NCBI GenBank assembly: GCA_016235185.1
Contig: JACRLT010000042.1
Coordinates: 37,917-61,916 of the forward strand
DNA from: Candidatus Omnitrophota bacterium
GTDB lineage: Bacteria; Omnitrophota; Gorgyraeia; Velamenicoccales; Velamenicoccaceae
Length of the DNA stretch: 24,000 nt
Direction: 5' to 3'
The position numbers and the translations under genes are program-made. Below, one piece after another: positions 3,121-22,098 of the stretch; the stretch's first letter is position 1; every line of letters starts with the position of its first letter. A model generated the notes under the pieces. That model was not told the DNA's origin. It saw only the letters and a program-made list of their open reading frames with translations, and made no database searches.

Positions 3121-3129
3121 GTCAAGCCG

Positions 3130-4882: not shown

Positions 4883-4889
4883 GGACTCT

Positions 4890-6790: not shown

Positions 6791-6816
6791 TGGATTCCTT
6801 TCGTTGATCTATATAA

Positions 6817-6950: not shown

Positions 6951-6982
6951 ATAGGGAATTGCGCAAAATCGGAAGATTTTTT

Positions 6983-8089
6983 TCAAATCAGGCGGGAACA
7001 GATCTCATCTAAAACAACCATGCCAGATAGGGTCGCTTTCAAGCGAAGCTTCTCTTGGCTCAATAACCCGTGTTCAATAAGATCGTAAATAACCGCTTTC
7101 TTCTCTTTAGGCAATATGACTTCAAACCTTTGCTCCAGATCGGAGACATCCACTCCTTCGGCCAACCTTAGGCCTATGAGCAGTGTCTCCATAAAACGCT
7201 CTTCTTGCGTCAATTTCTCCTGGCCCTCCATAGCCCGGGGCTTTTCTTTCATCATATCAAGGTAGGTTTCTATCGTAGCACCATTCCAATATCTATGGCC
7301 GTTTAAGTGTGAGTGGGCTGCAACGCCCATGCCTATATAATTTCCGCCCCTCCAATAATTAATGTTATGCCTGCATGGATACCCCTGTTTGGCAAAATTG
7401 CTTACCTCGTAATGAAAAAAACCGTGACGCTCTAACGATTGCGAAACAAAAAGATACTCATCCCCCTGTTTTACATTAGTAGGCGGTTCTATGTTGCGAA
7501 GGTAAAATTGAGAACCTTCACAAATAGAGAGCGTATAAAGCGAGATGTGCTCGCTGCCAAAAGACGCAAGGCCAAAAACATCCTCTTCTATTTCTTTTCT
7601 CGTCTGGCCCGGCAAGGAATAGATAAGGTCCAGGTTAATATTTTTAAACCCTGCATCCCTTAAGGCCTCAAAAGAAGAAAGGGCCTGCGTTCTGGTGTGC
7701 GGCCTGCCCAAAAATTCCAAATACTTGTCATTAAGCGACTGTACCCCGAGGCTCATGCGGTTGGCTCCTGAATCAAAGATCGTTTTAGCCTTCTGTGCAT
7801 CAAACGTAGCAGGATTAGCCTCCATAGTTATTTCGGCTCCGTCTTCGATCACAAAATTAGACCGTATGATCTCAAATAGCGTTCTTATGTCAAGAACGCT
7901 TAAATACGTCGGCGTCCCGCCGCCTATATAGACAGTGCTGACACTTTGGCCTTTATAGCCTGAAGCCTCTTTATCCAAGGCATCCAGATACGGCCCTATC
8001 AGATCATCTTTTTTCTCAAACGAAGAGAACGAACAATAGAAACACTTGGACTGACAAAATGGGATGTGGATGTATAAGGAAGGGTTCAT
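6983..8089 (-). CDS. hemW: Radical SAM heme chaperone HemW (HemN-like, oxygen-independent coproporphyrinogen oxidase family)
   Basis: LYIHIPFCQSKCFYCSF radical-SAM CxxxCxxC motif, GGGTP, 368 aa. Confidence 0.9.
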   Translation of the reverse strand: MNPSLYIHIPFCQSKCFYCSFSSFEKKDDLIGPYLDALDKEASGYKGQSVSTVYIGGGTPTYLSVLDIRTLFEIIRSNFVIEDGAEITMEANPATFDAQKAKTIFDSGANRMSLGVQSLNDKYLEFLGRPHTRTQALSSFEALRDAGFKNINLDLIYSLPGQTRKEIEEDVFGLASFGSEHISLYTLSICEGSQFYLRNIEPPTNVKQGDEYLFVSQSLERHGFFHYEVSNFAKQGYPCRHNINYWRGGNYIGMGVAAHSHLNGHRYWNGATIETYLDMMKEKPRAMEGQEKLTQEERFMETLLIGLRLAEGVDVSDLEQRFEVILPKEKKAVIYDLIEHGLLSQEKLRLKATLSGMVVLDEICSRLI

Positions 8090-8120
8090 ACCGTGAAATA
8101 GACGCTAAGAATTAATTTAT

Positions 8121-8177
8121 CCCGCTTCGCAAAATGTGTTAAAATTCTCTACGATAATTTTAACACGCTTACGCGGG
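8121..8177. repeat. Hairpin module related to the central hairpin of family-1 copy 2, in inverted orientation
   Basis: 8138-8164 is GTTAAAATT-CTCTACGAT-AATTTTAAC. Its reverse complement differs from 2524-2552 by one loop base plus compensatory stem changes. It is flanked by CCCGC (8121-8125) and GCGGG (8173-8177). Confidence 0.6.
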
Positions 8178-8204
8178 ATTTCGCTGGAATAGGCATCAAT
8201 GTGC

Positions 8205-8591
8205 TCAAAATGATCTGAAATTCTTGACGTATTCGGCGAGAAACTGCTTTGTGCTTTGGTCGATCTCGGTAAATTCCAAGCCAACCCGATAAGTCGCTGA
8301 ATCACCCTGCGAAGAACAATATCGCACTATTCCTTTGGCATGGATCTTAACATCCCCCTCCTCTTTTGTAGGGAGGTCAAAAGCAATGTCCAATTCGGTA
8401 TTTCGCGGTAACATTACCTCGGAGATAAAACCAATACCACCCTCGCCCAGATCGACCAGGCAGACGGTTTCGCTGCTGCCCCCGAGCTTCATTTTTACTT
8501 CAGGAGGATGTTCAACAGAATAAAAGAGGTCTGTCTTTAAAAGCGCCCTTTCGGATTTACGCCTATCAACCCCCCAGAATGAATCGTCCAT
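8205..8591 (-). CDS. PilZ-domain protein (putative c-di-GMP receptor)
   Basis: RRKSER (RxxxR) and DLGEGGIGF (D/NxSxxG-like) motifs. 128 aa. Confidence 0.75.
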   Translation of the reverse strand: MDDSFWGVDRRKSERALLKTDLFYSVEHPPEVKMKLGGSSETVCLVDLGEGGIGFISEVMLPRNTELDIAFDLPTKEEGDVKIHAKGIVRYCSSQGDSATYRVGLEFTEIDQSTKQFLAEYVKNFRSF

Positions 8592-8621
8592 ATTTTCACC
8601 TTCCGTTGCCTGCTTTAAAAC

Positions 8622-9206
8622 TTAATCACCCATATCTGTCAGCATATCCCCCATATCCGGCATGCCAAGTGACATCTTCTGATAACCGGCAGGGATCTCG
8701 AATAATCCCTGATCTTGTGCGCCGGTCTGGATATTCTTGAACTCGCTCGACCAGCTACCGTCTATAGCAGCGGTCTTTACCGGGATATGCGTACTATCAT
8801 CGATCCACTGGAAGACCGCCTCACGCCTGCCTTGCGCCTGGAAAGTCACGCGGTACTTAGTCGTGGCCATGCCATTGACCGTCTCTTTACCTTCAACGAT
8901 ACGTTCGATCTCTCCGGCCACCTTCTCCTGTGTCCCGGCGGCCGAGCGCGCGTCGATCGGCTGTTCCATATACATCGACTCACTCGGCATAAGCACCCAC
9001 GCTACCATCTTATCCATGCGGCTTATAGTCGTAGCTTCCGGCATATCCATCCGCGACTTCTGGCCCGAAACATAAATTTTTGCCGTAAAAGTCCCATCTG
9101 AAGAAGAACTCACCATATCCGCGCTAAAATCCTCCGCGTAACTAGTGCCTGCCAATAACGCCATCCCAAACACTAAAAATATCGAATAAAACGCAACCTT
9201 CCGCAT
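8622..9206 (-). CDS. Secreted hypothetical protein
   Basis: 194-aa ORF with signal peptide MRKVAFYSIFLVFGMALLAGTSYA. GGAGG lies 5 nt upstream of the ATG. No family confidently recognised. Confidence 0.6.
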   Translation of the reverse strand: MRKVAFYSIFLVFGMALLAGTSYAEDFSADMVSSSSDGTFTAKIYVSGQKSRMDMPEATTISRMDKMVAWVLMPSESMYMEQPIDARSAAGTQEKVAGEIERIVEGKETVNGMATTKYRVTFQAQGRREAVFQWIDDSTHIPVKTAAIDGSWSSEFKNIQTGAQDQGLFEIPAGYQKMSLGMPDMGDMLTDMGD

Positions 9207-9232
9207 ACCCGCCTCCGCAATGGTTTCTGTCC

Positions 9233-9541
9233 CTATTTTTTTCCGCTTGCCTGATATCCGTATAACCCTATTTTCTTCCTATTGGATTGCGGCCTGAAAT
9301 GCACAAAAATGCGGCCGTAATTCTTGTCATCCTTCTCTACCCTATGGTAGAGCTGCTTTATCTTCGGCTGTGCCAAAAAACGCAGTACATGTTTTTTTAG
9401 TTCCCCGCTCCCTTTACCGGCGATGATCTCCACTAAAGCGATCCTTTTAGTGACAGCCTCATCGACAACCCGATTAAGCTCGATATCGATCAGGTTCCCT
9501 TTATTAAAAATATCGTGCAGATCCAACTTTATTCTGGCCAT
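9233..9541 (-). CDS. Smr-domain (MutS2 C-terminal-like) small protein
   Basis: 102 aa. LDLHD...VEIIAGKGSGELKKHVLRFL resembles the Smr core (LDLHG...HGKG...L). Called by eye only. Confidence 0.6.
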   Translation of the reverse strand: MARIKLDLHDIFNKGNLIDIELNRVVDEAVTKRIALVEIIAGKGSGELKKHVLRFLAQPKIKQLYHRVEKDDKNYGRIFVHFRPQSNRKKIGLYGYQASGKK

Positions 9542-9547
9542 GGCCTT

Positions 9548-9586
9548 ATTATTGACTTACGCAAAACCAATGGAAGCTTCTTTGCG
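9548..9586 (-). repeat. Short hairpin repeat, family 3, copy B (immediately upstream of the Smr start)
   Basis: Minus-strand reading: CGCAAAGAAGCTTCCAT-TGG-TTTTGCGTAAGTCAATAATAAGGCC, then ATG. It matches plus-strand 1891-1925. Confidence 0.7.
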
Positions 9587-9602
9587 TTCCTCTATAATTA
9601 TG

Positions 9603-10235
9603 CTAGTTGTCTAGGACTGTAAATTCATGGATATATTTTTTTATAGATTCGCCTATTGTCAGGAAATCTTTTTTGGCAAGCAGCTCTTTTTTAAAGACGC
9701 TTGCGCCGAAGCTGACGGCAGAAGCGCCATTCGCAAAATATGTCCTCAAGTTTTGGGGCGTCACACCGCCGCACGCCAAAAGCTCAACATCACCAAACGG
9801 CCTTTTTATCTCCTTGAAATATTCAGGCCCGAAAAAATTAGACGGGAAGACCTTGACCATAGTCGCGCCGCTCTTCCAGGCGTTCCAGATTTCCTGGGGG
9901 GTCAGCGCCCCGGGGAACGCGGGTATATTATTTTTGACGCAATACTCCATGACGTCCTGGACAAGCGCAGGCATGACGATAAATGTTGCGCCGGCATCAA
10001 GCGCGCTTTTTAGACTCTCTAGATCCAATACTGTGCCGGCCCCGATCGTCAGGCGCTTTTTTGATAGCGCAACGGCTTTACGGATCAATTCGGCAGCGCC
10101 CTTGGTATTCATGGTTATCTCTATTGTTTTTAATCCTGCGGACTCGATGGTGGCGACCAAAGGTTCAAGCGTCTCGGCTCCTATGCCGCGCAAGATGCCG
10201 AGGATCGGCAATTGTTTAAATTTCGCGACTTCCAC
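9603..10235 (-). CDS. eda: KDPG/KHG aldolase (2-dehydro-3-deoxyphosphogluconate / 4-hydroxy-2-oxoglutarate aldolase)
   Basis: LPILGILRG...IEITMNT...IGAGTVL...GATFIVMP...PGALTPQEI...VKVFP. 210 aa. Confidence 0.85.
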   Translation of the reverse strand: MEVAKFKQLPILGILRGIGAETLEPLVATIESAGLKTIEITMNTKGAAELIRKAVALSKKRLTIGAGTVLDLESLKSALDAGATFIVMPALVQDVMEYCVKNNIPAFPGALTPQEIWNAWKSGATMVKVFPSNFFGPEYFKEIKRPFGDVELLACGGVTPQNLRTYFANGASAVSFGASVFKKELLAKKDFLTIGESIKKYIHEFTVLDN

Positions 10236-10236
10236 C

Positions 10237-11187
10237 CTATTCCTCCACTTCCCCGACTAAGCTGTCATAAAATTCCCGGTAATTCTCCTTCTTGTCACTG
10301 CTTCGCAAAGCTATAGCAGCCCTGGGATGCTCATCAAGGATGCCGGTGATAGCATAGGGAATAATATATCCCCACTCCATCTTTTCCCGTAACGGGATAA
10401 ACTCCTTAGAGATAAGATCAAGGACAGGCCTTATGTCGAATTTCGGATTTTTTAAAAATCCCAGCACAAGTTCCAACGGGCAGTTCCCCGCTGCACGGCC
10501 CAACCCATAAACAGTGGCATCCACATAATTGGCATCATGGATTATCGCCTCAATAGTGTTGCTAAAAGCAAGCTGCTGGTTGTTATGCGCATGTATCCCA
10601 ACTTCTTTGGATTTCAGTATGCTTTTTGCTTTTTTTATGAGGAACTCCGTTGTCTCCTGATACAAAGCACCAAAACTATCGACGATATAGATGACGCCCG
10701 CCTTGCACTCAAGTTCCAGCTGTTGCAGGCATTCGGTCAATTCATTATCCAATGCCCGCGATATAGCCATGATATTGACCGTGGTTTCATAACCTTTGTC
10801 GGCAAAATGGTTCACCAGATATATGGCCTTATCGATATCCTTTACATAAGATGCCACACGCATCATTGCAACCGGGCTGTCTTTGCGCGGTACGATATCA
10901 TCAACATCCACCCTGTCCACGTCCACCATACAAGAGATCTTGGTCTTTGACTCTATACCGTCAGTGACTTTTTTTATGTCCTCTTCATCGCAGAATTTCC
11001 ATCTTCCGAAGTCCTTGGGTGAAAACAGTTTCTTGGAATTCTTGTAACCTATCTCCATGTAATCTACGCCGGCCAATGAAAGCGCCTTATAGACCTCGCG
11101 GACAAACCGGATATCAAAATCGTGGTTATTGATAAGCCCGCCGTCCCTTATCGTGCAATCCAATACTTTTATCTTCTCTCGAAACAT
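10237..11187 (-). CDS. HMGL-like (DRE-TIM metallolyase / pyruvate carboxyltransferase-domain) aldolase family protein
   Basis: VLDCTIRDGG near the N-terminus and VGIHAHNNQQLAFSN (HxH metal site). 316 aa. AAGGGAG RBS. Confidence 0.8.
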   Translation of the reverse strand: MFREKIKVLDCTIRDGGLINNHDFDIRFVREVYKALSLAGVDYMEIGYKNSKKLFSPKDFGRWKFCDEEDIKKVTDGIESKTKISCMVDVDRVDVDDIVPRKDSPVAMMRVASYVKDIDKAIYLVNHFADKGYETTVNIMAISRALDNELTECLQQLELECKAGVIYIVDSFGALYQETTEFLIKKAKSILKSKEVGIHAHNNQQLAFSNTIEAIIHDANYVDATVYGLGRAAGNCPLELVLGFLKNPKFDIRPVLDLISKEFIPLREKMEWGYIIPYAITGILDEHPRAAIALRSSDKKENYREFYDSLVGEVEE

Positions 11188-11236
11188 ATTTACTCCCTTT
11201 TGTTAGACGTTATGGATCCTGCTGAAACTGCGCTTC

Positions 11237-11540: not shown

Positions 11541-11576
11541 CCACCATCTTTTTCCGATACAGGAAAAAGATGGTGG
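11541..11576 (-). terminator. 15-bp perfect hairpin that includes the tmRNA 3' CCACCA (processing or termination hairpin)
   Basis: CCACCATCTTTTTCC (11541-11555), a 6-nt loop, then GGAAAAAGATGGTGG (11562-11576). No U-tract follows on the minus strand. Confidence 0.45.
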
Positions 11577-12043
11577 AGGTGGGCGGAATCGAACCGCCGT
11601 CCTTAAATTATCCGATAGAAAGCACTACATGTTTAGCCTATTTATTAATTTAACCTGTTTTACTCCAGTAGGCAGGATTAAAACAGGCTGTCCTTTTTTA
11701 GATTTAATCCCGACAACTAAAGGAATGTTGTTGGAACGAGCCTGTTTCCGGCACCTATACGCTTCCAGGCAAAACGCATAAGTGGTCCCGCTTAATGAGC
11801 GAGAGCTAACGCTGGAGTTGCAGGAGCAGCTGTCAATCCAGGATTGGTAGCCTCAGTGGAGAACAAACTTACTGTTTCCTCTGATGTAGCCGCCATACTT
11901 GGACCATTGGCAATTGCTTCAGCTTCTCTGATCAGACTTTCGTCTTTTGCGTTTATATTGTGCAAGGTGTTTAAAGAGGCCTCCTCGCAACCTCTACATG
12001 CTCCATCTACCAGTAAAACCTAAGTCGAGCCCTTTTCACCCCC
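11571..12043 (-). ncRNA. ssrA: tmRNA (SsrA), 473 nt
   Basis: The 5' end GGGGGTGAAAAGGGCTCGACTTAGG pairs with the 3' end ...GGCGGTTCGATTCCGCCCACCTCCACCA. The acceptor stem has a G3:U pair and a T-arm GGTTCGATTCC. PK1: AGAGG/CCTCT plus TGCGAGG/CCTTGCA. The resume region AAAC-GCA AAA GAC GAA parallels E. coli GCA AAC GAC GAA. Confidence 0.93.
11792..11950 (-). other. tmRNA tag-encoding reading frame (52 codons plus TAA)
   Basis: From GCA at 11950: AKDESLIREAEAIANGPSMAATSEETVSLFSTEATNPGLTAAPATPALALAH*. Translated by hand; no in-frame stop before 11794-11792. Confidence 0.55.
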
Positions 12044-12081: not shown

Positions 12082-13002
12082 TTAAAACGCTGGCCTTCTT
12101 CTAACCCCTTTTCCTGTAAAGTGTTTTATCGCTTCAGGAGGATATTCCAGGAAATATTTATCTTCTCCCAGGAATGAAGAATCCTTGAAGAAGAACTTCT
12201 CAAACTCATTAAAATTATAAGCCATAATGACTGTTTTTACAATGCTAATTATCGCATCTTTTTTCTCATCAGCCGTTAAGTCAAAGGGCGTTGTATTATA
12301 CTCAAGAGCGAAACGTTTGTAAATACGCCACTTAATCTGCTTTTCAACAAACTCCTGCATAGTCACGTCATGGTAATTGACATGTGTTCCTTCTATATCC
12401 CGATAAGATGAGGATGTTTTATTGCCATCAAGGTCAACTTGTTCTTCTATCTTCTCCAGGTCCCAAGACAGCCGGCTAAAGCCCTCACCCGAAAAATCAA
12501 CGCCAACATTATAATTCTTTAAATCGTCAATAAAACCCATATAATATTCATCAACAGTATTATTTGGATCTTCAATATTCGTAACAACAAGCACAAAAAA
12601 CGTATAGGGCTGCGTACATCTAAGTTCGAGATCGCGCATCAGTCTCACTACTTTCTGCGAGATGTATCTTAATTCAGGAGGGTCCTGCTTTCTGAACGGG
12701 TTGAAAGAGGCAATGTTATATTCAAGATTAAAAGCATTATCATTTTTTATCTTAGTCCCTGCAAGCCCTTTCCTTCCTGACGAATAAGGCATATATACCC
12801 ATAGGGTGTCATTGGCAGCCCTGCAGGTGACGCGCGCCTGGTAGCGGTTCTTGCAAATCACGGGAAGAACTCCCAGGAGCTCTTCCCGTGACATCTTAAA
12901 AGAATTCTCACACGACGTCAGAAGAACCATCAATGAACATAATAAAAAAAATCTCACAGATACCCGCGCCGGCAACATTATCTTATTTGTATTATTTTCC
13001 AT
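12082..13002 (-). CDS. Hypothetical lipoprotein encoded between the tandem FtsH gene and ssrA
   Basis: Start at ATG 13002 with GGGAG 9 nt upstream, 4 nt after the FtsH stop. MENNTNKIMLPARVSVRFFLLCSLMVLLTSCEN carries a lipobox (LTSC). The tracked longer ORF (to 13185) overlaps the ftsH-like gene. Confidence 0.65.
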   Translation of the reverse strand: MENNTNKIMLPARVSVRFFLLCSLMVLLTSCENSFKMSREELLGVLPVICKNRYQARVTCRAANDTLWVYMPYSSGRKGLAGTKIKNDNAFNLEYNIASFNPFRKQDPPELRYISQKVVRLMRDLELRCTQPYTFFVLVVTNIEDPNNTVDEYYMGFIDDLKNYNVGVDFSGEGFSRLSWDLEKIEEQVDLDGNKTSSSYRDIEGTHVNYHDVTMQEFVEKQIKWRIYKRFALEYNTTPFDLTADEKKDAIISIVKTVIMAYNFNEFEKFFFKDSSFLGEDKYFLEYPPEAIKHFTGKGVRRRPAF

Positions 13003-13006
13003 AAGC

Positions 13007-16000
13007 CTAAACTCCCGGCCTTGCTTTACCGAAAGATTTAAAAATCTCTTCCATCTGGTCATAATCCAATTCTTCTTTTTCAAGAAGTGACTGCGCGAAT
13101 TTATCAAGCAGCGCTCTTTCCTGCGAAAGTATCTTTTCAACGTCGCTGCGGCATTCGCCGATGATCTTTTGCACGTCGCTATCAAGTTTTGCCTTCATCT
13201 CTTCAGACATCCTAGATTCAGCCGGTTGGTTGCCGAAAGCAAGGGCTGAAAAGTTTCCGCTCATCCCGCTTTCACCCATGCCCCACTCATAAACCATGCT
13301 ATAGGCGACCCGCATGACATTTTTTAGATCTGCGGATACGCCTGCGGTTGTATAGCCATATTTTGTTTTTTCTGCCACATACCCTCCGAGAGATGTCTTG
13401 ATATTTGCCAGCGCCTGTTTTTGGTCAAATGCCAGGGTCTCCTCTGTGGCATGAGACCAGCTTACCCCTGCTGAGCTCTTGCGCGGAATAATACTCACCT
13501 TGAAAACATCTCTTTTGGGCTGAAGCAAATAAGTCATAATAGCGTGCCCTGCCTCATGATACGCCGTGGCTTCTTTTTCCTGACGCGACAACTGGACACG
13601 CTGCCGTAATCCCAGCTCAATACGCTCCATTGCCTCGCTTATTTCATCCATTGTAATAAAGTCTTTTTTATTCCTCACCACAAGTATGGCTGCCTCGTGG
13701 ACCATATTGGCTATATCCGCCGGAGAATAACCAACACTGATACGCGCAAGTTTATCTGTACGCACTGAATTTTTATCATAGCTGACATTGGAAAGGTAAT
13801 ATTCAAAAAGCTTTTGCCTATCTTCCAGATTGGGAAGATAGATATATAATTTACGGTCAAAACGGCCCGGGCGCAAAAGAGCCGGGTCAAAATGATCTTC
13901 GGGCATATTAGTCGCGCCAACCACCACAATATTAAACTCCGCATCTTTTTCCTTAAGGCCGTCCATCTCTACTAGAAATTGATTGAGGGTCTGATTATGC
14001 TCTCTCTGCCCTCCGAGACCCATATCAACGGCGCGCCTGGCTCCAAGTGCGTCAATTTCATCAATAAATAAAATACATCCGCCGTGAATCTGGGCCAATT
14101 CTTTAGCTTCTATGAACATACGCCGTATGCGCATAGCGCCCACTCCAACAAACATCTCAACAAATTCTGAGCCGGATTTATACAAAAACGGCAGATTAAA
14201 CTCTGTGGCCATAGCGCTGCCCAGATATGTCTTGCCGCAGCCAGGAGGCCCGAACATGAGAAGTCCCTTGATAATTTTTCCTCCGACTCTCTGCAAGCGA
14301 GCCCTGTCCTTTATCAATTCCACTACCTCACGCGCTTCCTGCTTTGTTTCATCCATGCCTATAACATCATCCCAAGTAACGCCTGTTTTTATGATGCGGG
14401 CTTCCTGGACCATTACAGCTTCTCTTGCAGGCCGCTCTTTATCGGATTCCTTAAAAATCTGCTCAATCTCATCATAATTAAGCTCTTCTTTTTCCTCTAA
14501 TTCCTTCGCCAGCTTTTCAACTATTTTCCACTCCTGTCTTAAAAGAGTATTGATCTGCCGATAACAGTGCTCGATCATCTCCTGGGCATCTTTGTCCAAA
14601 TCCTCCTGAATTAGATTAGACACGCCTGCACCTTCAAAATTGCCTATGTGTCCTGACTTACCCATCCCCCAGCGCCATACCATATTATGAGCAAGCTCCG
14701 TCGCTTTACGCAAGTCGCTTTCAGCCACATTTGAGGTCACGCCGAATTTTATCTTTTCAGAGACAAAACCTGCCAGTGATATTTTTATATCCGCCTGGAC
14801 CAGGTTTTTATCGCGGCTTAAAACCTCCTCTTTTTCAGTCAAAAGAGAAGATACAATATCTTTACCCCTGGGAATGATAGTTGCTTTAAAAACATCTTTG
14901 GTCGGAACCAACAGATATGTAACCAGGATATGGCCTGCCTCATAAAAAGAAAGCCGCGCCTTCTCTTCCTGCGTCATTCTAAAATGGCGCTTTATACCTA
15001 GCGATATCCTTTCGCGGGCCTCTTTCATTTCTTTCATAGTAATAGCAGGTTTTTTATTGCGCTGCGTTATAACCAGTGCCTCCTGAACCATATTCGCTAT
15101 TTCCGCAGGAGAAGCGCCTACGGTAATACGCGCCAAGCTCTCAATATCTGCTGAGTTTTTATCATAAGAAGTCTTTCCCAAATAATACTCAAAAAGTTTT
15201 TTGCGGTCATACGCATCAGGCAAGTCTACCACTATCTTGCGGTCAAACCTACCGGGGCGAAGAAAGGCCGGATCGAGAAATTTTTCTGACATGTTGGTAG
15301 CGCCAAATACTACTATATTATCGGCCTTACTTCTTAAGCCGTCCATTTCAACAAGCAATTGGTTTAAGGTGGTGTTGTGTTCTGTCGTGCCGCCAAAACC
15401 TTCAAACGTTCCCCTTGACATACCCATCGCATCAATCTCATCGATAAAGATAACGCACCCGCCTTCCAGGGCAGCTAATTCTCTGGCTTGCTTAAACAAC
15501 TTGCGTACCCGGCTGGCGCCGACTCCGACGAACACCTCTACAAATTCAGAACCCGACAACGATAAAAACGGAAGCTTGGTCTCGGTGGCTATAGCTTTGA
15601 CGAGATAAGTCTTACCGCAACCCGGAGGGCCCAATAATAATACTCCTTTTAATATTTTTGAGCCGCTTTTTTCAAGCTCTACCCTGTCTGTTATAAGCTG
15701 CACAACCTCTCTTGCCTCTTTCTTCGACTCCTCCATCCCGATGACATCTTCCCAGCGCACACCGATATCTGCGCCTCTGATATAAGACTTGCCTATTCGA
15801 GTAAAAGCCCTGGCTGCATCGCCGCGCATAATAAACACCCACATCAATCCAAAAATTACCGATTGAATAACCGCAAAATAAAGCTGGAACGGAAACCCCC
15901 CTATCGTACGCTGCTTAGTCACAAAATCTACACTGGACCACTCCGAAATTCCACGATAAAGAAGGATACCCACCGAGATAACCATAACTAAAGACACAAC

Positions 16001-16060
16001 AACCATAATTATTTTGATCCAGTGCAATTTGAAAAATATTTTCATTCTTTTGTTATCCAT
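13007..16060 (-). CDS. Tandem-duplicated FtsH-like AAA+ metalloprotease: 2 TM helices, then [AAA+ and M41-like] twice
   Basis: Walker A GPPGCGKT is at aa 144-151 and 604-611. Walker B IFIDEID is at aa 204-210 and 664-670. Pore loops are FVEVFVGVGA and FVEMFVGVGA. The SRH LRPGRFDRK occurs twice. The protease motif is YEAGH at aa 373-377 (nt 14930-14944) and HEAGH at aa 835-839 (nt 13544-13558). AAGGAG RBS. Confidence 0.9.
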   Translation of the reverse strand: MDNKRMKIFFKLHWIKIIMVVVSLVMVISVGILLYRGISEWSSVDFVTKQRTIGGFPFQLYFAVIQSVIFGLMWVFIMRGDAARAFTRIGKSYIRGADIGVRWEDVIGMEESKKEAREVVQLITDRVELEKSGSKILKGVLLLGPPGCGKTYLVKAIATETKLPFLSLSGSEFVEVFVGVGASRVRKLFKQARELAALEGGCVIFIDEIDAMGMSRGTFEGFGGTTEHNTTLNQLLVEMDGLRSKADNIVVFGATNMSEKFLDPAFLRPGRFDRKIVVDLPDAYDRKKLFEYYLGKTSYDKNSADIESLARITVGASPAEIANMVQEALVITQRNKKPAITMKEMKEARERISLGIKRHFRMTQEEKARLSFYEAGHILVTYLLVPTKDVFKATIIPRGKDIVSSLLTEKEEVLSRDKNLVQADIKISLAGFVSEKIKFGVTSNVAESDLRKATELAHNMVWRWGMGKSGHIGNFEGAGVSNLIQEDLDKDAQEMIEHCYRQINTLLRQEWKIVEKLAKELEEKEELNYDEIEQIFKESDKERPAREAVMVQEARIIKTGVTWDDVIGMDETKQEAREVVELIKDRARLQRVGGKIIKGLLMFGPPGCGKTYLGSAMATEFNLPFLYKSGSEFVEMFVGVGAMRIRRMFIEAKELAQIHGGCILFIDEIDALGARRAVDMGLGGQREHNQTLNQFLVEMDGLKEKDAEFNIVVVGATNMPEDHFDPALLRPGRFDRKLYIYLPNLEDRQKLFEYYLSNVSYDKNSVRTDKLARISVGYSPADIANMVHEAAILVVRNKKDFITMDEISEAMERIELGLRQRVQLSRQEKEATAYHEAGHAIMTYLLQPKRDVFKVSIIPRKSSAGVSWSHATEETLAFDQKQALANIKTSLGGYVAEKTKYGYTTAGVSADLKNVMRVAYSMVYEWGMGESGMSGNFSALAFGNQPAESRMSEEMKAKLDSDVQKIIGECRSDVEKILSQERALLDKFAQSLLEKEELDYDQMEEIFKSFGKARPGV

Positions 16061-16075: not shown

Positions 16076-16528
16076 TCACTTGTTCTTAAGCATTCTCTTC
16101 ATTGCCAAATTCGCTTCTCGGCGTCTTATATCTTGGCGCCTATCATATGTTTTTTTACCCTTGGCTAAAGATAGGGCCACCTTAACAAAACCTCTCGCGT
16201 TAAAATACATCTTCATCGGCACAAGCGTAAAACCACGCTGAGAAACCTTGCCTATTAATTTTTTTATCTGTGCGTGATGCAAGAGAAGACGCCTGGGCCT
16301 TGTGGCCTCTTCCTTAAAATAGCTGGCCTTTTCGTATGGGGTTATATGGCAGTTATGTAGATATATTTCGTTGCCTTCAATGCGGGCAAAGGCATCGTCG
16401 ATATTTGCCTTGTGGTCCCTAAGCGACTTGACTTCACTGCCCTTTAGCTCAAGACCGCACTCCAGGGTCTCTAAAACCTCATAATCCCTGAACAATTTGC
16501 GGTTTGTGGCTATGACCTTTTCGTCCAT
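16076..16528 (-). CDS. smpB: SsrA-binding protein SmpB
   Basis: IATNRKLFRDYEVLETLECGLELKGSEVKSLR...LHNCHITPYE...RPRRLLLH..EI.KL...KGFTLVPMKMYF..G.VKV.L.LAKGKK.YDRR. Confidence 0.95.
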   Translation of the reverse strand: MDEKVIATNRKLFRDYEVLETLECGLELKGSEVKSLRDHKANIDDAFARIEGNEIYLHNCHITPYEKASYFKEEATRPRRLLLHHAQIKKLIGKVSQRGFTLVPMKMYFNARGFVKVALSLAKGKKTYDRRQDIRRREANLAMKRMLKNK

Positions 16529-16542: not shown

Positions 16543-17511
16543 TTAAAATGATTTTCCAGCCAGCGCCCAGTAAATGGCCAGGAATAACGGGATGGTCAAA
16601 ATGCTCAAAATGTGGCCGTAAAAGACGGCCTGATTTATCAGCCGGCCTGCCTGGTTATGGTTTTTTGTTATCACAGACAAAAGCGCTGCCGGCGGCATGG
16701 CAGCCTGCAGGAGGATCAAAAGCCCTACAAGAGGTTTAGGTTTGGCAAGGATGACAAACCCCAAAAAAAGCAAAGGTATAATAACAAGCTTTATCGAAAG
16801 CGAAAAACTGACAGGTTTTATATCCGTGCCGCCTTGTGTCTTTAACGACGCTAAATTGCCTCCGACAACAAGAATAGACAAAGGAATGGCGCAACGGCCC
16901 AGGATATCAACAGGCCGCGCAACAAACTGCGGCAGGATCGTTTTGATATTAAAAAATACGAATGCCAAAGCCAATAGCGTTGCAATGACCGGCGCGTTGA
17001 ACATGTGCCTGTAATCGAACCTCTGTCCTTTTTTAGGCGCCAATATCATGACGCCGAAAGAAAATATCGTCATGTTAAAACCTATCAAAAATAAGAATAT
17101 TAGAATAAACATCTCTTGCGCTGCCGCGGCAGGCAGCAAAGCCGCAACCAAAGGCAGGGGCAGGTAACCGGAATTCTGGAACGAAGTTATACCCAAAAAC
17201 TCCCCGGCGTTCTTTGCCAGTGTCTTATCAACTGCCAAAACAAGCGCCCCGCATGCATAGCCGACAAGGGTGATGAATATGCTGTAAAGCGGGAATATCC
17301 ACCAATCAGGATAAATGCTGAAACTGAAGCGCTCGACTATCTGGGAAAACATAAAACACGGCAAGAAAAGCCCGATGACAAGATCGCTTAAGACCCTTAC
17401 CCCTTCATCGCGGATGATATTGCGACGGACAATGAAAAATCCTACTGCCCCCAAAAGGACCAGTTCTAAAATAGAACCGAATGTCGTCTTAAACGCATCA
17501 ATAAACATCAT
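16543..17511 (-). CDS. AEC (auxin efflux carrier) family permease
   Basis: 322-aa polytopic membrane protein with an AEC-like pattern at the N-terminus and C-terminal half. ATGA overlap with the thermonuclease stop. Confidence 0.8.
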   Translation of the reverse strand: MMFIDAFKTTFGSILELVLLGAVGFFIVRRNIIRDEGVRVLSDLVIGLFLPCFMFSQIVERFSFSIYPDWWIFPLYSIFITLVGYACGALVLAVDKTLAKNAGEFLGITSFQNSGYLPLPLVAALLPAAAAQEMFILIFLFLIGFNMTIFSFGVMILAPKKGQRFDYRHMFNAPVIATLLALAFVFFNIKTILPQFVARPVDILGRCAIPLSILVVGGNLASLKTQGGTDIKPVSFSLSIKLVIIPLLFLGFVILAKPKPLVGLLILLQAAMPPAALLSVITKNHNQAGRLINQAVFYGHILSILTIPLFLAIYWALAGKSF

Positions 17512-18299
17512 GGAATAACCTCTATCTGCCAGGGGTGTGATACGATGATCTCGGGCTCTCCTTTATACTCTTTGATCAATCCGAATACCTGCGCTTTCTT
17601 GCCTTTATAAAAAGACGCGGGGCTGATGCCTTTGTTTAAAAAAAGCTCGAGGTCGTTTTTAAATATGACCAAGGCCAGGCCATCCATTGACAGGCGCACC
17701 AGCTTCTCCATTGAGCGCGTTTTTTTGATCTCGCCTGTGACGATCTTTCTCTGGCCCACAAAATGCGCGGCATCTTGGGAAGAGATGTCCAGGTCCTGCG
17801 ACCATATGCCACGCCGATTCTCTTTTGCCTCTTTTAAAGCGCTGACAAGCGTATCCACATATTTTACATTCGGCACAAATGTGTAAAGATAAGCCAGGCC
17901 GTTCCTTAATATTTCAGCCTGGGCCAGGACTTCTTTGCCGCCGTCTTTGACGAACAAATAGACTAGCAGCCTTTTGTATTTATCCTGGCGCACGATATCA
18001 AACTCCAGGCGCGCGGCCTTTCCTGATACAAGTTCCTCATTAAAACGCCTTGCCTCCTCTCCAAAAGGTTCAGAGACGTTTTTCCAGCCGCTCGCAGTCT
18101 TTTTGTGCGTCTCGGGAGTATCAATACCTATATAACGCGCCATCTCCCCATTCTTTAACTCAACTGTGTCACCGTCTACAACGGACTTTATCTCAACATT
18201 GCCATAATCAACAGGCGTATTCTTAAAACCGACGGCAAGAACAATGATGAGCGCAGACAGAACTGCAGCAAATATGAATATATACCGGTTTATTTTCAT
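17508..18299 (-). CDS. Secreted thermonuclease (staphylococcal nuclease/SNc homologue) with a C-terminal extension
   Basis: Signal/TM segment, then VVDGDTVEL..GEMARYIGIDTPET...FGEEA..FN...RLEFD...DKY.RLL.Y. Confidence 0.85.
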   Translation of the reverse strand: MKINRYIFIFAAVLSALIIVLAVGFKNTPVDYGNVEIKSVVDGDTVELKNGEMARYIGIDTPETHKKTASGWKNVSEPFGEEARRFNEELVSGKAARLEFDIVRQDKYKRLLVYLFVKDGGKEVLAQAEILRNGLAYLYTFVPNVKYVDTLVSALKEAKENRRGIWSQDLDISSQDAAHFVGQRKIVTGEIKKTRSMEKLVRLSMDGLALVIFKNDLELFLNKGISPASFYKGKKAQVFGLIKEYKGEPEIIVSHPWQIEVIP

Positions 18300-18364
18300 A
18301 GATGATCCGGTGGCGGGGTATCTGGGCTACTTTATCAACTGTTTCCAACAATTGCAGGGAGAGG

Positions 18365-18757
18365 CTATTTTATCAATTGTTGGACTATCTTGACGAAAAC
18401 TTTTTCAGCAGTTGCCACGCGTGGAAAAAGGCCTTTTCTGGCCTTGACCTTTACGCGTATGGCTTCCGGCGTAAGCTGGGTTATCTCAACTTTGACTTTT
18501 GCCTTATCTATAAGGGCTTCCATAGTGCCTTTTGTCGAATCACGATTTGAAATAGCTCCGAGCATATTGCAGGTATCCAGCGCTGCCTTCCAGGCAGCCG
18601 CATATTTGGCATCATATTCGCCCTGGATAGTATCGCGAGTGATCGCATATCCGCCTAAAGCGCCTACGCTGCTGGCTATCAGAAAGAAACAACCGCTCAA
18701 AGATATAAGACAGATAAAAATTACCGCGAACAAACTTATCTTTTTTAAATTCATCAT
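18365..18757 (-). CDS. Hypothetical lipoprotein
   Basis: MMNLKKISLFAVIFICLISLSGC carries a lipobox. AAGAGG precedes ATG 18757/18754. The tracked ORF start at 18793 is less likely. Confidence 0.6.
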   Translation of the reverse strand: MMNLKKISLFAVIFICLISLSGCFFLIASSVGALGGYAITRDTIQGEYDAKYAAAWKAALDTCNMLGAISNRDSTKGTMEALIDKAKVKVEITQLTPEAIRVKVKARKGLFPRVATAEKVFVKIVQQLIK

Positions 18758-18851
18758 TTGACCTCTTAAATGACGGCATACTTTACGGAACAAAGTAAAC
18801 GTAAAGTATACGCCGGAATTTATCCCGCACCCAAAGGGTGTCGGGATCTAT

Positions 18852-18959
18852 TTAGGTAATTGTCCCCTTTTTAGAGAATATCTTATAAAAACAAAAGACG
18901 GCAAGGCCTATAATACCGAGCCATGATATACCTAAAAAAAACCAGCCAAAAAAATTCAT
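18852..18959 (-). CDS. 35-aa single-TM small protein, translationally coupled to the NSS transporter (possible MetS-like small subunit)
   Basis: ATGA overlap with the transporter stop (18956-18959). MNFFGWFFLGISWLGIIGLAVFCFYKIFSKKGTIT*. Below the ORF-track size cutoff; found by hand. Confidence 0.5.
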   Translation of the reverse strand: MNFFGWFFLGISWLGIIGLAVFCFYKIFSKKGTIT

Positions 18960-20527
18960 AGCAGTTTTTTCTCCTCTTCTCTGGCGCGCCTGCGCCAGGC
19001 GATCTTTACCAATACAGCAAGCGCAGTAAATAGCCCAATGAGGCCTATCCTCGTCCAGAAAATATATGGTTTATCCGCATCGGATGCCCCCTTCAAAAAC
19101 AGCACAGGCAAACCCTCCTGGTATATCCAGAAACCCAGGATGGTCAATAAGAAAAGCGGCGTAATGAACTTAATGATAAACTTATATATTTTAGGAACGC
19201 GCATATCAGCGCCGTGATGTATCTCCTCCCACGCGCGATCCATGCCAAATACCCAGGCAAAAAGAATGGTTTCGATCGTCGCAAAAAGCACAAGGCAAAA
19301 CGTGCCTCCCCAAAAATCAAGCTCGTTAACAACGCCCCTGCCCAAAAAGAAAATAGCAGGCTGGCACAAGAAAAAGCTTACCACGCCAAATATCTTGACC
19401 GATCTCTGGCGCGTAATGTCAAACTCATCCTCCAGGAAGGCTATGGCAGGCTGGGCCAACGAAACGCTTGAAGTAATGCCTGCCAAAAACAAAAGCCCAA
19501 ACCATAAAAAACCGAATACAGGGGCCAAGGGAAACTTACCCAAAACAAGAGGCATTGTCACGAACCCTAGGTCAAATGCGCCTTGCTTGGCTATTGCCTG
19601 GATCTCGCCGGGCCCAAAAAAAACAAATGCCGCAGGGATAATAATACAGCCGCCTAATATTACTTCAGCCGCCTCATTGACGCTTGCGGCTGTGAGGCCT
19701 GAAAGCACCACATCATCCCCTTTTTTCAAATAGCTGGCATACGTCAGAATAACGCCGATCCCTACGGAAAGAGTAAAAAGTATCTGACCCGAAGCAGCCA
19801 ACCATACCTTGGCGGACTTAAGCGCGCTAAAATCGGGATTCCATAAAAAACCTAAACCGTTATTTAAGTTCCAATCCGGCCTCGCAGGATCAGGCGTACC
19901 CAATGACAAAACCCTGATAGCCAAGATAATACCGAAGAAGAACAGAACAGGCATCGTAATATTGCAGAGTATCTCAATGCCGCCTTTGATGCCGTGGCGC
20001 AGGACTATCATATTCAAAACAAAAGTTATAAAAAAAAATATATAGGCAGGCCAAAGATCATGGAAAAAAGCATTGCTCTCTAAACCCTGATACCCCTTAA
20101 GGAATGCCTGCATGGAAGGCTGATCCACAACCGCAAACAGGCCTTTAACACTATAGAAACTATATCCTAAAGTCCACGATTCTATAAAAAGATAATATAT
20201 GAATATTACAAGAGGGCCAAAGATACCGATAACGCCGAAGTATTTTATAAAGCGGTTCTTTTTCCATATGCTGTGGAAGATGCCCGGGGCTGTGCCATGC
20301 TCAAAACCTCCGCCAAAACGGCCCAGGGTCCATTCTATCCACATAAGCGGTATCCCCAATAACAACAAGGAGATAAAATAAGGTATCATGAACGCGCCGC
20401 CGCCATTGCCTGCTGCCTGGACAGGAAACCTTAAAAAATTACCGAGCCCTACGGCAGAGCCTGCGACAGCAAGGATGATGCCGAGCCTGGAACCCCACGT
20501 ATCACGCTTATGTTTTAGCTGTCTCAT
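18956..20527 (-). CDS. Sodium-dependent transporter, NSS/SNF family
   Basis: WGSRLGIILAVAGSAVGLGNFLRFPVQAAGNGGGAFMIPYFISLLLLGIPLMWIEWTLGR is the hallmark NSS TM1 region. 523 aa. Confidence 0.93.
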   Translation of the reverse strand: MRQLKHKRDTWGSRLGIILAVAGSAVGLGNFLRFPVQAAGNGGGAFMIPYFISLLLLGIPLMWIEWTLGRFGGGFEHGTAPGIFHSIWKKNRFIKYFGVIGIFGPLVIFIYYLFIESWTLGYSFYSVKGLFAVVDQPSMQAFLKGYQGLESNAFFHDLWPAYIFFFITFVLNMIVLRHGIKGGIEILCNITMPVLFFFGIILAIRVLSLGTPDPARPDWNLNNGLGFLWNPDFSALKSAKVWLAASGQILFTLSVGIGVILTYASYLKKGDDVVLSGLTAASVNEAAEVILGGCIIIPAAFVFFGPGEIQAIAKQGAFDLGFVTMPLVLGKFPLAPVFGFLWFGLLFLAGITSSVSLAQPAIAFLEDEFDITRQRSVKIFGVVSFFLCQPAIFFLGRGVVNELDFWGGTFCLVLFATIETILFAWVFGMDRAWEEIHHGADMRVPKIYKFIIKFITPLFLLTILGFWIYQEGLPVLFLKGASDADKPYIFWTRIGLIGLFTALAVLVKIAWRRRAREEEKKLL

Positions 20528-20580
20528 ATGCTGGTATCCGCCGAAGGCGGATTTCGCTGGATCGTTACATAGATGTGCTT

Positions 20581-20609
20581 ATTATATACGGCGGGCTTTT
20601 ACTTTTCAA
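20581..20609 (-). promoter_or_regulatory. Consensus sigma70-type promoter for the NSS transporter operon
   Basis: Minus strand: TTGAAA (20609-20604), a 17-nt spacer, then TATAAT (20586-20581), about 55 nt upstream of ATG 20527. The leader contains hairpin ATCCGCC-TTC-GGCGGAT. Confidence 0.6.
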
Positions 20610-20699
20610 CTTTTTAATGCGCAGACACTTTATGGAACATTAGTGAACATAAAGTGTAGGCCTCGCCTGCCTCCGGCAGGCAGGGCAGTCTGCGAATTA

Positions 20700-20748
20700 C
20701 CCCCACTGATTCGTTTTGCATTCGCAAAGCGAATCAAAACGGTGGGGG
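20700..20748 (+). repeat. 49-nt CCCCCAC...GTGGGGG three-helix hairpin module, variant copy
   Basis: It differs from the copies at 1013-1061 and 22165-22213 at 3 positions. Two of them (module positions 21 and 35) are a compensatory T:A to A:T swap. Confidence 0.75.
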
Positions 20749-20774
20749 TAAATTCCGCCCAATAACTTACGTCG

Positions 20775-20870
20775 TAAATGGAGCCCGGTGTTCCTTTGGC
20801 GGAATACTTGAAGCGGCCGCAACCATACGCAGCCTAAAGGGCACGGTTTTAGGCCACGAAAGTATAAGTG
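20775..20870 (+). repeat. Leader repeat, family 2, copy Y (short form)
   Basis: TAAATGGAGCCCGG...TTTGGCGGAATACTTGAAGCGGCCGCAACCATACGCAGCCTAAAGGGCACGGTTTTAGGCCACGAAAGTATAAGTGG, directly upstream of the DedA/YqaA-like gene. It aligns with the reverse complement of 6817-6950. Confidence 0.7.
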
Positions 20871-20894
20871 GATTGTGGATATTTTCTTGTTATA

Positions 20895-21524
20895 ATGAAG
20901 AAAATTATGAAGACGCTAATCTACATACTCAAGGCGCCGCTACGATGGTTTAGGAATATGTACAAGTGGACCATCCATTGGTCCAAGAAAAAAGAAGCTC
21001 CGTATGCGCTCTTCTCAATAGCCTTCGCCGAAAGCTCCTTCTTCCCTGTCCCGCCGGATGTGCTTTTGATCGCGATGGTATTGGCGCAAAGAAAAAAGTG
21101 GTTTGTCTACGCGGGTATTTGCACACTCGGCTCTGTATGCGGGGCTTTACTTGGGTATTTTATCGGGTGGGGGCTTTATGAGACTGTGGGTAAATTAATA
21201 GTATCTACCTATCACCTTGAGTCTGTGGTCGAGCTTATCGGCCAAAAATACCAGGCCAACGCGTTCCTTACGGTATTTACCGCAGCATTCACACCTATCC
21301 CCTACAAAGCGATCACTATCACCGCAGGGCTTTTTAAGATATCACTCGGTGTGCTTGTAGCGGCCTCGATCATCGGCCGCGCCGGAAGGTTTTTCCTTGT
21401 GGCTGTTTCTTTGAGGATATTCGGCAAGAAAATAGAAGATTCGATAGAAAAATACTTCGATATCTTCTCTCTTGTCCTGGTAGGATTATTGATACTTGGT
21501 ATTCTCGCCTTAAAATATCTATAG
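20895..21524 (+). CDS. VTT-domain (DedA/YqaA-family) inner-membrane protein
   Basis: YALFSIAFAESSFFPVPPDVLLIAMVL...GSVCGALLGYFIGWG. ATG 20895 is preferred over the tracked GTG at 20868; ATG 20907 is also possible. It is the only plus-strand gene. Confidence 0.85.
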   Translation: MKKIMKTLIYILKAPLRWFRNMYKWTIHWSKKKEAPYALFSIAFAESSFFPVPPDVLLIAMVLAQRKKWFVYAGICTLGSVCGALLGYFIGWGLYETVGKLIVSTYHLESVVELIGQKYQANAFLTVFTAAFTPIPYKAITITAGLFKISLGVLVAASIIGRAGRFFLVAVSLRIFGKKIEDSIEKYFDIFSLVLVGLLILGILALKYL

Positions 21525-21525
21525 G

Positions 21526-21675
21526 CTATTTCTTTTTAATCTCGTCTAATATCCTGTCGAGCTTAGTCTCGATACGCAGCAATATCTCCATCTTCTTCTG
21601 TTCCATCTTCGCCTGGCTATCCTGCAATTCCTTGGCTGCCTGGGCCATCTTCGCCATATCCGGTAAATTAAACAT
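21526..21675 (-). CDS. 49-aa predicted coiled-coil small protein (not in the ORF track)
   Basis: AAGGAG lies 7 nt upstream of ATG 21675. MFNLPDMAKMAQAAKELQDSQAKMEQKKMEILLRIETKLDRILDEIKKK*. It is preceded by family-1 copy 3. Confidence 0.45.
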   Translation of the reverse strand: MFNLPDMAKMAQAAKELQDSQAKMEQKKMEILLRIETKLDRILDEIKKK

Positions 21676-21805
21676 CAATTTACTCTCCTTAATTTTGCAT
21701 TTTCTGGGTATTTTTCTTCACAAAATTAACTCCGAAGCCAGCGATGGAATTTCGTGCCGGAGAACCCTGGCACGAAATTACGAGCGCTTTGGCAAGGAGT
21801 CTACC
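21676..21805 (-). repeat. Modular intercistronic element, family 1, copy 3 (third type of central hairpin)
   Basis: Minus-strand reading: GGTAGACTCCTTGCCAAAGCG.., then AATTTCGTGCC-loop-GGCACGAAATT (21748-21779), then ..CGCTGGCTTCGGAGTTAATTTTG..CAAAATTAAGGAGAGTAAATTG, then ATG. Stem 21689-21697/21721-21729. Confidence 0.8.
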
Positions 21806-22098
21806 TAGAATTTTTTCCCGTGCCTGTATGGACGGCTCTTGTTTTTTTCGGCTTTCTTCTTCAGCGCTGCCTCAAGGTCTATTCCGCGGGCGCCGCAATA
21901 ATCAAAGATCCTGATACAGCAATCCGCGAGCTCCTCGGCAACATCATCTTTGCCTAAGTCATTGCGCATAGCCTCTAACGCCTCCGATAACTCCGAATGC
22001 ATGAGTGCGATGAGCTCGCCATCGGAGCGTTCAAAATCCCACCACCCTTTTTCCTTGGCGGTCTTGTAACATAATTCGATCCAACTATTAATAGTCAT
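21805..22098 (-). CDS. MazG-like nucleotide pyrophosphohydrolase family protein (small all-alpha NTP-PPase)
   Basis: 97 aa. LMHSELSEALEA...AEELADCCIRIFD is an E/D-rich metal-binding helix pair. The C-terminal NKSRPYRHGKKF is typical of the MazG-like family. Confidence 0.75.
   Translation of the reverse strand: MTINSWIELCYKTAKEKGWWDFERSDGELIALMHSELSEALEAMRNDLGKDDVAEELADCCIRIFDYCGARGIDLEAALKKKAEKNKSRPYRHGKKF

Follow-up and report, generated by a model that had tools for sequence, protein, structure and literature searches.

What kind of enzyme results when a single reading frame encodes the cytoplasmic part of FtsH twice, and how would such chains assemble? The question is raised by a gene of a Candidatus Omnitrophota bacterium (assembly GCA_016235185.1, contig JACRLT010000042.1), which we call the tandem ftsH and which lies in the stretch of 24,000 nucleotides analysed here (the window; positions 37,917 to 61,916 of the contig). 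FtsH is, to our knowledge, the only membrane-anchored AAA+ protease; nearly all bacteria have it, and E. coli cannot live without it. Its requirement for live subunits and the coordination between subunits have previously been probed with engineered covalent multimers and point mutants. The window gene offers a natural experiment on the same stoichiometry, a covalent tandem with the exact His-to-Tyr "trap" mutation in one of its units. We read it, with very little doubt, as a genuine single-chain tandem FtsH whose origin is a single ancient duplication, within the gene, of the cytoplasmic AAA+M41 part of a short-loop Omnitrophota FtsH, with both ATPases predicted to be active, the first M41 domain a pseudo-protease and the second the only protease.

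Two FtsH units in one chain

The protein of 1017 residues is encoded on the minus strand by a single uninterrupted open reading frame (ORF), as a preliminary description of the sequence had proposed, starting at an ATG with an AAGGAG Shine-Dalgarno sequence just 5′ of it. It is identical to NCBI entry MBI5873976.1, from a metagenome-assembled genome (MAG) of Candidatus Omnitrophica/Omnitrophota, where it is labelled "AAA family ATPase". The Pfam search proposed as a check of the double architecture returned two AAA domains (PF00004), two AAA_lid_3 and two Peptidase_M41, that is, two AAA and two M41 domains per polypeptide and not one of each. The curated NCBIfam model FtsH_fam (TIGR01241) is passed over two stretches with 880.7 bits against a cut-off of 600, and both AAA modules also match the CDC48 family model. 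From N- to C-terminus the order is membrane hairpin, AAA, M41, linker, AAA, M41, and the two units are 57% identical across 360 residues (E = 9e-151). The parts are as follows, in window coordinates:

13007..16060, minus strand, tandem ftsH: transmembrane (TM) hairpin, AAA1, dead M41-1, linker, AAA2, live M41-2 (single ORF, Pfam, TIGR01241, MBI5873976.1)
15824..16021, minus strand, N-terminal membrane hairpin, TM1 ~14–36, TM2 ~57–79, ~20-residue loop (hydropathy, AlphaFold2, no PF06480)
14996..15763, minus strand, AAA module 1, residues ~100–355, with Walker A at 144–151, FVGVG, IFIDEIDA, GATN and RPGRFDR (Pfam and motifs)
14432..14983, minus strand, M41 domain 1, residues ~360–543, apparently a conserved pseudo-protease (Pfam M41, identity)
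14930..14944, minus strand, degenerate zinc motif YEAGH, residues 373–377 (motif; tyrosine in 36/36 of clade A, defined below)
14384..14431, minus strand, inter-unit linker, residues ~544–559 (alignment and predicted local distance difference test, pLDDT)
13610..14383, minus strand, AAA module 2, residues ~560–817, the most conserved part of the protein (Pfam, motifs, identity)
13031..13597, minus strand, M41 domain 2, residues ~822–1010, catalytically complete (Pfam, zinc ligands)
13544..13558, minus strand, intact zinc motif HEAGH, residues 835–839 (motif, alignment)

The Walker A motif GPPGCGKT begins at residue 144 and again at residue 604, 460 residues on, in agreement with the offset of roughly 460 first described, and the other motifs named at the time are likewise present in both units: Walker B (IFIDEIDA in unit 1, LFIDEIDA in unit 2), the FVGVG pore loop and RPGRFDR, to which the sensor-1 GATN can be added. 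Both units therefore have what defines a classical AAA module (Walker A and B, sensor-1, the arginines of the second region of homology and the pore-loop aromatic), and with all catalytic motifs retained each of the two ATPases is predicted to be active. The two units differ at the zinc site. Unit 2 has HEXXH and the downstream aspartate (H835, E836, H839, D911), while unit 1 reads YEAGH, so that one of the two M41 domains of the chain has an incomplete site; both motifs lie at exactly the nucleotides originally given for them. The third zinc ligand, aspartate, is retained in each unit (D449 and D911), 71 residues beyond the second histidine. The C-terminal M41 is thus predicted to be the sole catalytic protease, and the sequence argues firmly for a membrane-anchored ATP-dependent protease with two live motors, one dead M41 and one live terminal M41 per chain.

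The N-terminal two-TM anchor of FtsH is present as hydrophobic segments at residues ~14–36 and ~57–79, and in an AlphaFold2 model (full-chain monomer, 56-sequence alignment) helices 3–41 and 46–87 form a helical hairpin. No Pfam match to the periplasmic domain FtsH_ext (PF06480) is found between the two segments, where the loop has only ~20 residues. The very short loop of the preliminary description is thus real, but it is not special to the tandem: the single-unit Omnitrophota FtsH of ~560 residues has the same one. The domains of the model fold well (mean pLDDT 77.9), the linker residues 548–556 fall below a pLDDT of 50, and the predicted template modelling score (pTM) is 0.48. Foldseek matches of the model are AFG3L2, FtsH, YME1 and Ycf2-FtsHi chains, including 8xku_E.

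A family of doubles and the fate of the first protease site

The architecture is no one-off. A homology search returned dozens of full-length doubles of 998–1041 residues with 47–82% identity to the window protein, and at least 56 distinct ones, from NCBI, JGI, ENA and Logan assemblies, align with it end to end; these at least 56 sequence clusters include a sister clade with both protease sites intact. The doubles that carry a name are nearly all from Omnitrophota, and at the level of 50%-identity representatives essentially one cluster (represented by P0012) has the double architecture, so the design is phylogenetically narrow. The sequences are already public under generic labels only ("AAA family ATPase"), which can now be improved upon. 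Our search of the literature on tandem, fused or duplicated FtsH, and on FtsH in Omnitrophota/Omnitrophica, found no description of it, in line with the novelty first suspected.

We examined the zinc sites of 60 doubles, which fall into two clades. Clade A (n = 36) is made up of the window protein plus the doubles that share at least 64% identity with it, and here the first zinc histidine of unit 1 is tyrosine in 36/36, with further decay of unit 1 in a subset (YEAGR or YEAGQ with the aspartate replaced by histidine or asparagine; YQAGT). Clade B (n = 24, of which 21 were aligned; 47–57% identity) has HExGH and the aspartate in both units, save for a single HEAGK in unit 1 of P0065. Unit 2 is catalytically complete in all 60, and H835, E836, H839 and D911 are invariant across the 56 aligned sequences; the contrast between a degenerate first and an intact second site, originally drawn from one protein, therefore holds throughout clade A. 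Only the internal M41 decays in the doubles, and it has done so in at least two independent events, in clade A and as HEAGK in P0065.

Decay has not spread to the dead domain in its entirety: in clade A, M41-1 matches M41-2 in conservation (mean pairwise identity 0.70 against 0.65), AAA2 being the most conserved module. Unit 1 has kept the M41 fold and the ATPase motifs and has lost the zinc motif, as FtsHi-type pseudo-proteases have, and it appears to be a conserved pseudo-protease beside an apparently live ATPase. The linker is conserved as well: between F536 and W563 it spans 26 residues in 34/35 aligned clade-A proteins (25 in P0037), with an identity of 0.66 in clade A against 0.27 in clade B. 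Over all doubles it ranges from 21 to 27 residues, the shortest (21) being the variable, Lys/Glu-rich linkers of clade B. The tandem is maintained under purifying selection, and clade B, in which both sites are live, provides its internal control.

In five clade-B proteins (P0040, P0044, P0046, P0047 and P0051) the pore loop of unit 1 lacks the aromatic residue (IIVGLG or ILVGLG), which unit 2 retains, a loss reminiscent of certain type II AAA+ proteins with a degenerate pore loop in D1.

Origin of the duplication

Neighbour-joining (NJ) phylogenies were built for AAA modules and whole units, with support from 100 bootstraps, and only their robust groupings were used. Each group taken alone (single-unit, A1, A2, B1, B2 and 3xAAA) is monophyletic with 94–100% support, and the second units of clades A and B group together (D2 monophyly) with 87%. 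Unit 1 never pairs with unit 2 of its own clade (0% in clade A, 0% in clade B), and in a tree of M41 domains only, the M41-1 domains of the two clades cluster. Together these three results point to a single duplication before the split of A and B. The proposal of a head-to-tail covalent duplication of the whole cytoplasmic unit is supported. The corresponding D1 monophyly has 7% support on whole units, where the unit-1 clades are fast-evolving and unstable in their placement. After the duplication it was unit 1 that evolved faster, and the His-to-Tyr change arose on the stem of clade A. A long branch divides all Omnitrophota short-loop modules from T. maritima FtsH and PDB 7zbh, and in these trees the 3xAAA and 4xAAA proteins, described next, form a lineage separate from the doubles.

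Other FtsH architectures in Omnitrophota

Among the Omnitrophota FtsH variants, some have three or four consecutive AAA modules and one terminal, intact M41 behind the same TM hairpin; we know of no description of such variants. They are:

3xAAA+M41 variants, ~1100 residues: P0068–P0084, P0092, P0095, P0115 and P0117 (together with the 4xAAA set, at loci L017 and L018)
4xAAA+M41 variants, ~1367 residues: P0039, P0043, P0045 and P0062

In P0004 (1217 residues) and P0114 (869 residues, N-terminally truncated) the internal M41 has been duplicated again, giving AAA-M41-M41-AAA-M41; the extra copies are only 65–67% identical, so the duplications are old and not assembly repeats.

Genomic context and the lipoprotein partner

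The tandem gene is closely flanked on both sides by genes of the same strand:

16076..16528, minus strand, smpB (Pfam SmpB 1.8e-54), 15 nt upstream of the tandem ftsH
12082..13002, minus strand, lipoprotein-like partner gene, 306 residues, lipobox LLTSC, starting 4 nt past the ftsH stop
11571..12043, minus strand, transfer-messenger RNA (tmRNA; ssrA), tag APATPALALAH (ARAGORN; Rfam RF00023 170 bits)

A simple scan found a promoter-like site ahead of smpB; the gaps on either side of ftsH (15 nt and 4 nt) contained no terminator-like site. Three terminator-like flags on the same strand lie inside coding sequence (~15456–15473 and 14793–14805 in ftsH, 12955–12968 in the lipoprotein gene); such flags are probably due to chance, with 8 found against 5.8 expected. 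Seven GTDB species representatives carry the tandem with conserved flanking genes. smpB adjoins the tandem gene in 7/7 of these loci, and the order smpB-ftsH-lipoprotein-tmRNA is found in all five that are long enough (L001, L002, L004, L006 and L007), the other two contigs ending within the lipoprotein gene. The tmRNA of the related loci (Rfam/ARAGORN) lies at:

L001, 8175–8646
L002, 7545–8057
L004, 7002–7483
L006, 6381–6834
L007, 8107–8561

ARAGORN missed the tmRNA in four loci in which Rfam detected it. The tags have a hydrophobic stretch followed by a variable last residue (ALALAH, ALALAP, ALVPAR, ALVLVR, ALALAI, ALALVQ) in place of the usual …LAA.

A second locus has the order eno and divIC (opposite strand), an ftsH variant, a lipoprotein of 277–359 residues and Formyl_trans_N (opposite strand). 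The variant is a single-unit FtsH of 560 residues (P0087), a clade-B double (P0066, P0053), 3xAAA+M41 (P0075) or 4xAAA+M41 (P0045), depending on the lineage. By blastp (E = 1e-9 to 1e-13), the lipoprotein of the window has homologues 3′ of the single-unit, clade-B and 3xAAA genes, whereas the 359-residue ORF without Pfam match after the 4xAAA gene (L018) was matched to it by position only. With that qualification for L018, a lipoprotein-like gene lies directly 3′ of every Omnitrophota short-loop FtsH variant examined; outside clade A these ORFs are:

L014, 6631–7521
L016, 9095–9928
L017, 9313–10200
L013, 8014–10065 (N-terminal part)
L018, 10101–11180 (position only)

It thus looks as if a single housekeeping gene, with a single partner, has taken on different architectures in different lineages. 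Clade A lies away from the eno/divIC–Formyl_trans_N locus and shares only the lipoprotein with it; it has moved the ftsH–lipoprotein pair into the trans-translation locus. The lipoprotein of the window has no Pfam match and no significant fold match in the PDB, although it is modelled well by AlphaFold2 (pLDDT 82.8, pTM 0.77), and is possibly a partner on the periplasmic side that stands in for the missing FtsH periplasmic domain. Because the tandem retains the lipoprotein partner gene of the single-unit FtsH, it is probably the FtsH of this lineage and not an accessory enzyme. No single-unit FtsH could be placed in the same MAG via NCBI accessions, and a scan of genome contigs gave only the seven close tandem loci.

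The embedding between smpB and ssrA suggests, by association and from gene order, that tmRNA-tagged proteins are one likely class of substrates of the tandem FtsH. Herman and colleagues reportedly found in 1998 that E. coli FtsH degrades such proteins.

At one clade-B locus (L013, 2876–4829), two Band_7 (HflK/HflC-like) genes lie divergently beside the tandem FtsH, which has no periplasmic domain; they are absent at the other clade-B locus, L016.

Quaternary arrangement

In AFG3L2 the base of the protease ring is where the conserved M41 fold comes to its end, and a 30-residue extension can climb along the outside as far as the ATPase face nearest the membrane (10.1101/551085). A linker of 21–27 residues would therefore permit the second unit to be either an in-plane neighbour of the first or part of a ring below it. 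We slightly favour the latter, coaxially stacked hexameric tiers, over an in-plane trimer of tandems, and put the probability of the mechanism as a whole at about 0.45. Six chains would stand coaxially and form four stacked rings below the membrane, AAA1, the dead M41-1, AAA2 and the live M41-2, retaining all six membrane hairpins as in an ordinary FtsH. AAA1, at the membrane, would grip and pull substrates; the dead M41-1 ring would serve as hexamerisation platform and conduit; and AAA2 would thread the polypeptide into the chamber of the terminal M41-2 for cleavage.

One hint at stacking comes from the relatives: chains with 3xAAA+M41 and 4xAAA+M41, which share a locus with the single-unit and clade-B genes, could not make up a closed in-plane ring of six AAA and six M41. 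We also count for it the AAA-M41-M41-AAA-M41 chains, present in two lineages as old duplications, and the decay of only the internal M41 with the terminal one always intact. The M41 fold, moreover, ends at the base of the ring, just where a chain to a lower ring would begin, and a stack that keeps six hairpins would hold the stoichiometry of the partner constant across the family. Known tandem classical AAA proteins, finally, form stacked double rings (PMC5447069).

Several observations weigh against stacking. Clade B keeps the catalytic residues in both protease rings, which is odd for a strict pass-through, as the first chamber would already cut. An unfolded chain may or may not be able to leave through the base of an M41 ring; for AFG3L2 a tightly packed centre with a charged central channel is described (10.1101/551085). 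The 3xAAA/4xAAA lineage is separate from the doubles, and its mode of assembly need not carry over; the conserved linker of fixed length in clade A would equally suit a strap up the outside of a single ring; and the AlphaFold2 monomer, with its pTM of 0.48 and low-confidence linker, favours neither arrangement. The link to trans-translation, for its part, is drawn from gene order and in clade A only.

The in-plane ring was the arrangement put forward in the preliminary description, as a trimer of tandems in which live and dead sites alternate and one anchor serves every two ATPase modules, and it is possible, a serious contender to which we nevertheless give clearly less than even odds. Three chains would form one AAA and one M41 ring with units 1 and 2 alternating, with three live sites, three dead sites and three hairpins, in effect fixing within one chain the alternation seen in the FtsH heterohexamers of mitochondria, chloroplasts and cyanobacteria. 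The units are diverged paralogues (57%) like type A and B FtsH or Yta10 and Yta12, which form mixed rings, and Arlt and colleagues are said to have found in 1998 that m-AAA heterohexamers tolerate the loss of half the protease sites. A linker of 21–27 residues could plausibly reach the N-terminus of the neighbouring AAA, its fixed length and conserved sequence in clade A are those expected of a surface-bound strap, and clade B, with both sites intact, would simply be a normal hexamer. We know, however, of no natural protein that places two classical AAA modules of a single chain in the same plane. Such a ring accounts neither for the AAA-M41-M41-AAA-M41 variants nor for 3xAAA/4xAAA+M41 at the single-unit/clade-B locus, and it would halve the membrane hairpins relative to the single-unit form, yet the TM region and the lipoprotein partner are common to the family. 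AlphaFold2 packs the two units without confidence, and the shortest clade-B linkers would be at their limit over the ~55–70 Å to be spanned (geometry inferred from 10.1101/551085).

Cleavage of the linker, by the protein itself or by another protease, would yield a membrane-anchored, protease-dead, FtsH-like unfoldase and a separate soluble, active FtsH; the linker is predicted to be disordered, and the C-terminus of E. coli FtsH is self-processed (PMC13039401). No conserved internal start or cleavage motif is known, and the fusion is kept in at least 56 sequences with a conserved, fixed-length linker in clade A, which argues that the covalent link is functional; we consider cleavage improbable. 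Independent translation of unit 2 from an internal start was rejected, as Met550 is not conserved in the clade. Least probable by far, to the point of being negligible, is that an error of sequencing or assembly falsely joined two neighbouring ftsH paralogues; we found no point in its favour. The stop or frameshift at the unit junction that had been named as one way to overturn the tandem is excluded by an uninterrupted frame and by 56 independent sequences from four data sources that have the same architecture and align end to end; unit 2, besides, has no TM segment of its own, and the seven GTDB species representatives have conserved flanking genes.

If the trimer of tandems is true, the protein is a ring whose alternation is built into the chain and which has only half as many membrane anchors as usual; if the stacked hexamer is true, it represents a new class of multi-tier AAA+ protease. 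We would extend stacking, tentatively and in the knowledge that the whole picture is unlikely to hold, to the essential Omnitrophota membrane protease in general. It would be a modular stack of hexameric rings, with the number of tiers set by lineage, from AAA-M41 through AAA-M41-AAA-M41 and AAA-M41-M41-AAA-M41 to 3xAAA-M41 and 4xAAA-M41. The window protein would then have four tiers, its conserved dead protease ring acting as a conduit from one motor to the other, and its expression together with SmpB and tmRNA would serve the removal of tagged proteins. Such a stack, if true, would make it the first AAA+ protease in nature in which motor and protease tiers follow one another in series. The series from one to four motors, the lipoprotein partner and the embedding with smpB and ssrA also provide leads on proteostasis in an uncultured phylum of small cells.

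Other genes of the window and unrelated AAA proteins

The remainder of the window (1–11200 and 16543–23676) is ordinary, with genes for thioredoxin-like and PAS proteins, a histidine kinase, a response regulator, EndoIII and Ogg glycosylases, a HemN-like radical SAM protein, PilZ, HMGL-like, a Mem_trans permease, an SNase-like nuclease, an SNF symporter, trpF and trpC; the ORF at 6374–6790 has no Pfam match. Elsewhere, the unrelated P0129 (1428 residues) resembles two complete FtsH proteins, including FtsH_ext, joined head to tail. Single polypeptides with four to six classical AAA modules and no M41 also occur in the representative library (P0148, P0186, P0227, P0229, P0232, P0178 and P0248); P0148 (2124 residues) has six AAA stretches by Pfam and may be a single-chain ring. 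Many clusters with 2xAAA+M41 (~770–940 residues) are found in this library as well.

Comparison with known systems

The tandem shares with canonical FtsH (E. coli, T. maritima; MEROPS M41, TIGR01241) the two-helix anchor, the classical AAA module and, in unit 2, the Asp-zincin site HEXXH…D. Its identity to solved FtsH structures is 38–44%, with an FtsH/AFG3L2-like fold. It differs in having AAA+M41 twice per chain, a dead first zinc site, a loop of ~20 residues instead of FtsH_ext, and a downstream lipoprotein gene. By TIGR01241 and by fold it is therefore a member of the FtsH family, but it departs from the family norm in three ways: the chain carries two units, one of the M41 domains has an incomplete zinc site, and a periplasmic domain is missing.

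The change in unit 1 is the one used to make protease-dead FtsH. The H417Y mutant of E. coli FtsH is "catalytically inactive" (PMC13039401), the H423Y mutant of T. maritima FtsH is "protease deficient" and "zinc-binding-deficient" (PMC8943139), and the best PDB sequence match of the tandem, 7tdo, itself reads YEAGH; all three have the first histidine of HEXXH replaced by tyrosine. In the tandem, unlike in these engineered proteins, the tyrosine is natural, fixed clade-wide and confined to one of two M41 domains, and other ligands were lost later in some lineages.

The closest functional analogues of unit 1 appear to be the plant FtsHi pseudo-proteases, as in the Ycf2-FtsHi chloroplast import motor (PDB 8xku): they have kept the ATPase, lost the zinc site and work beside a zinc-site-bearing subunit, as unit 1 would beside unit 2. 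FtsHi1–5 are the sole M41 pseudo-peptidases listed in a 2024 review (PMC11266112). FtsHi are, however, separate polypeptides of a eukaryotic organelle from which most active-site residues are gone, whereas the dead domain of the tandem is bacterial, is fused to a live unit and so is not a separate polypeptide of the plastid import motor, and retains the glutamate, the second histidine and the aspartate in most members.

Two further systems bear on assembly. The alternating FtsH heterohexamers (Yta10/Yta12, AFG3L2/paraplegin, cyanobacterial FtsH2/3 and plant type A/B) likewise combine two diverged paralogues in one complex; these are encoded by separate genes, while the units of the tandem are fused. 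The model of the tandem does not superpose on D1–D2 of p97 (template modelling score ~0.3). By its Pfam domains it has two AAA modules in one chain, both of the classical kind, as do the type II AAA+ proteins (p97/Cdc48, NSF, ClpB/Hsp104 and Pex1/6), whose modules form stacked double rings; what sets the tandem apart from these is the M41 domain between its AAA modules and a chain that ends in a protease.

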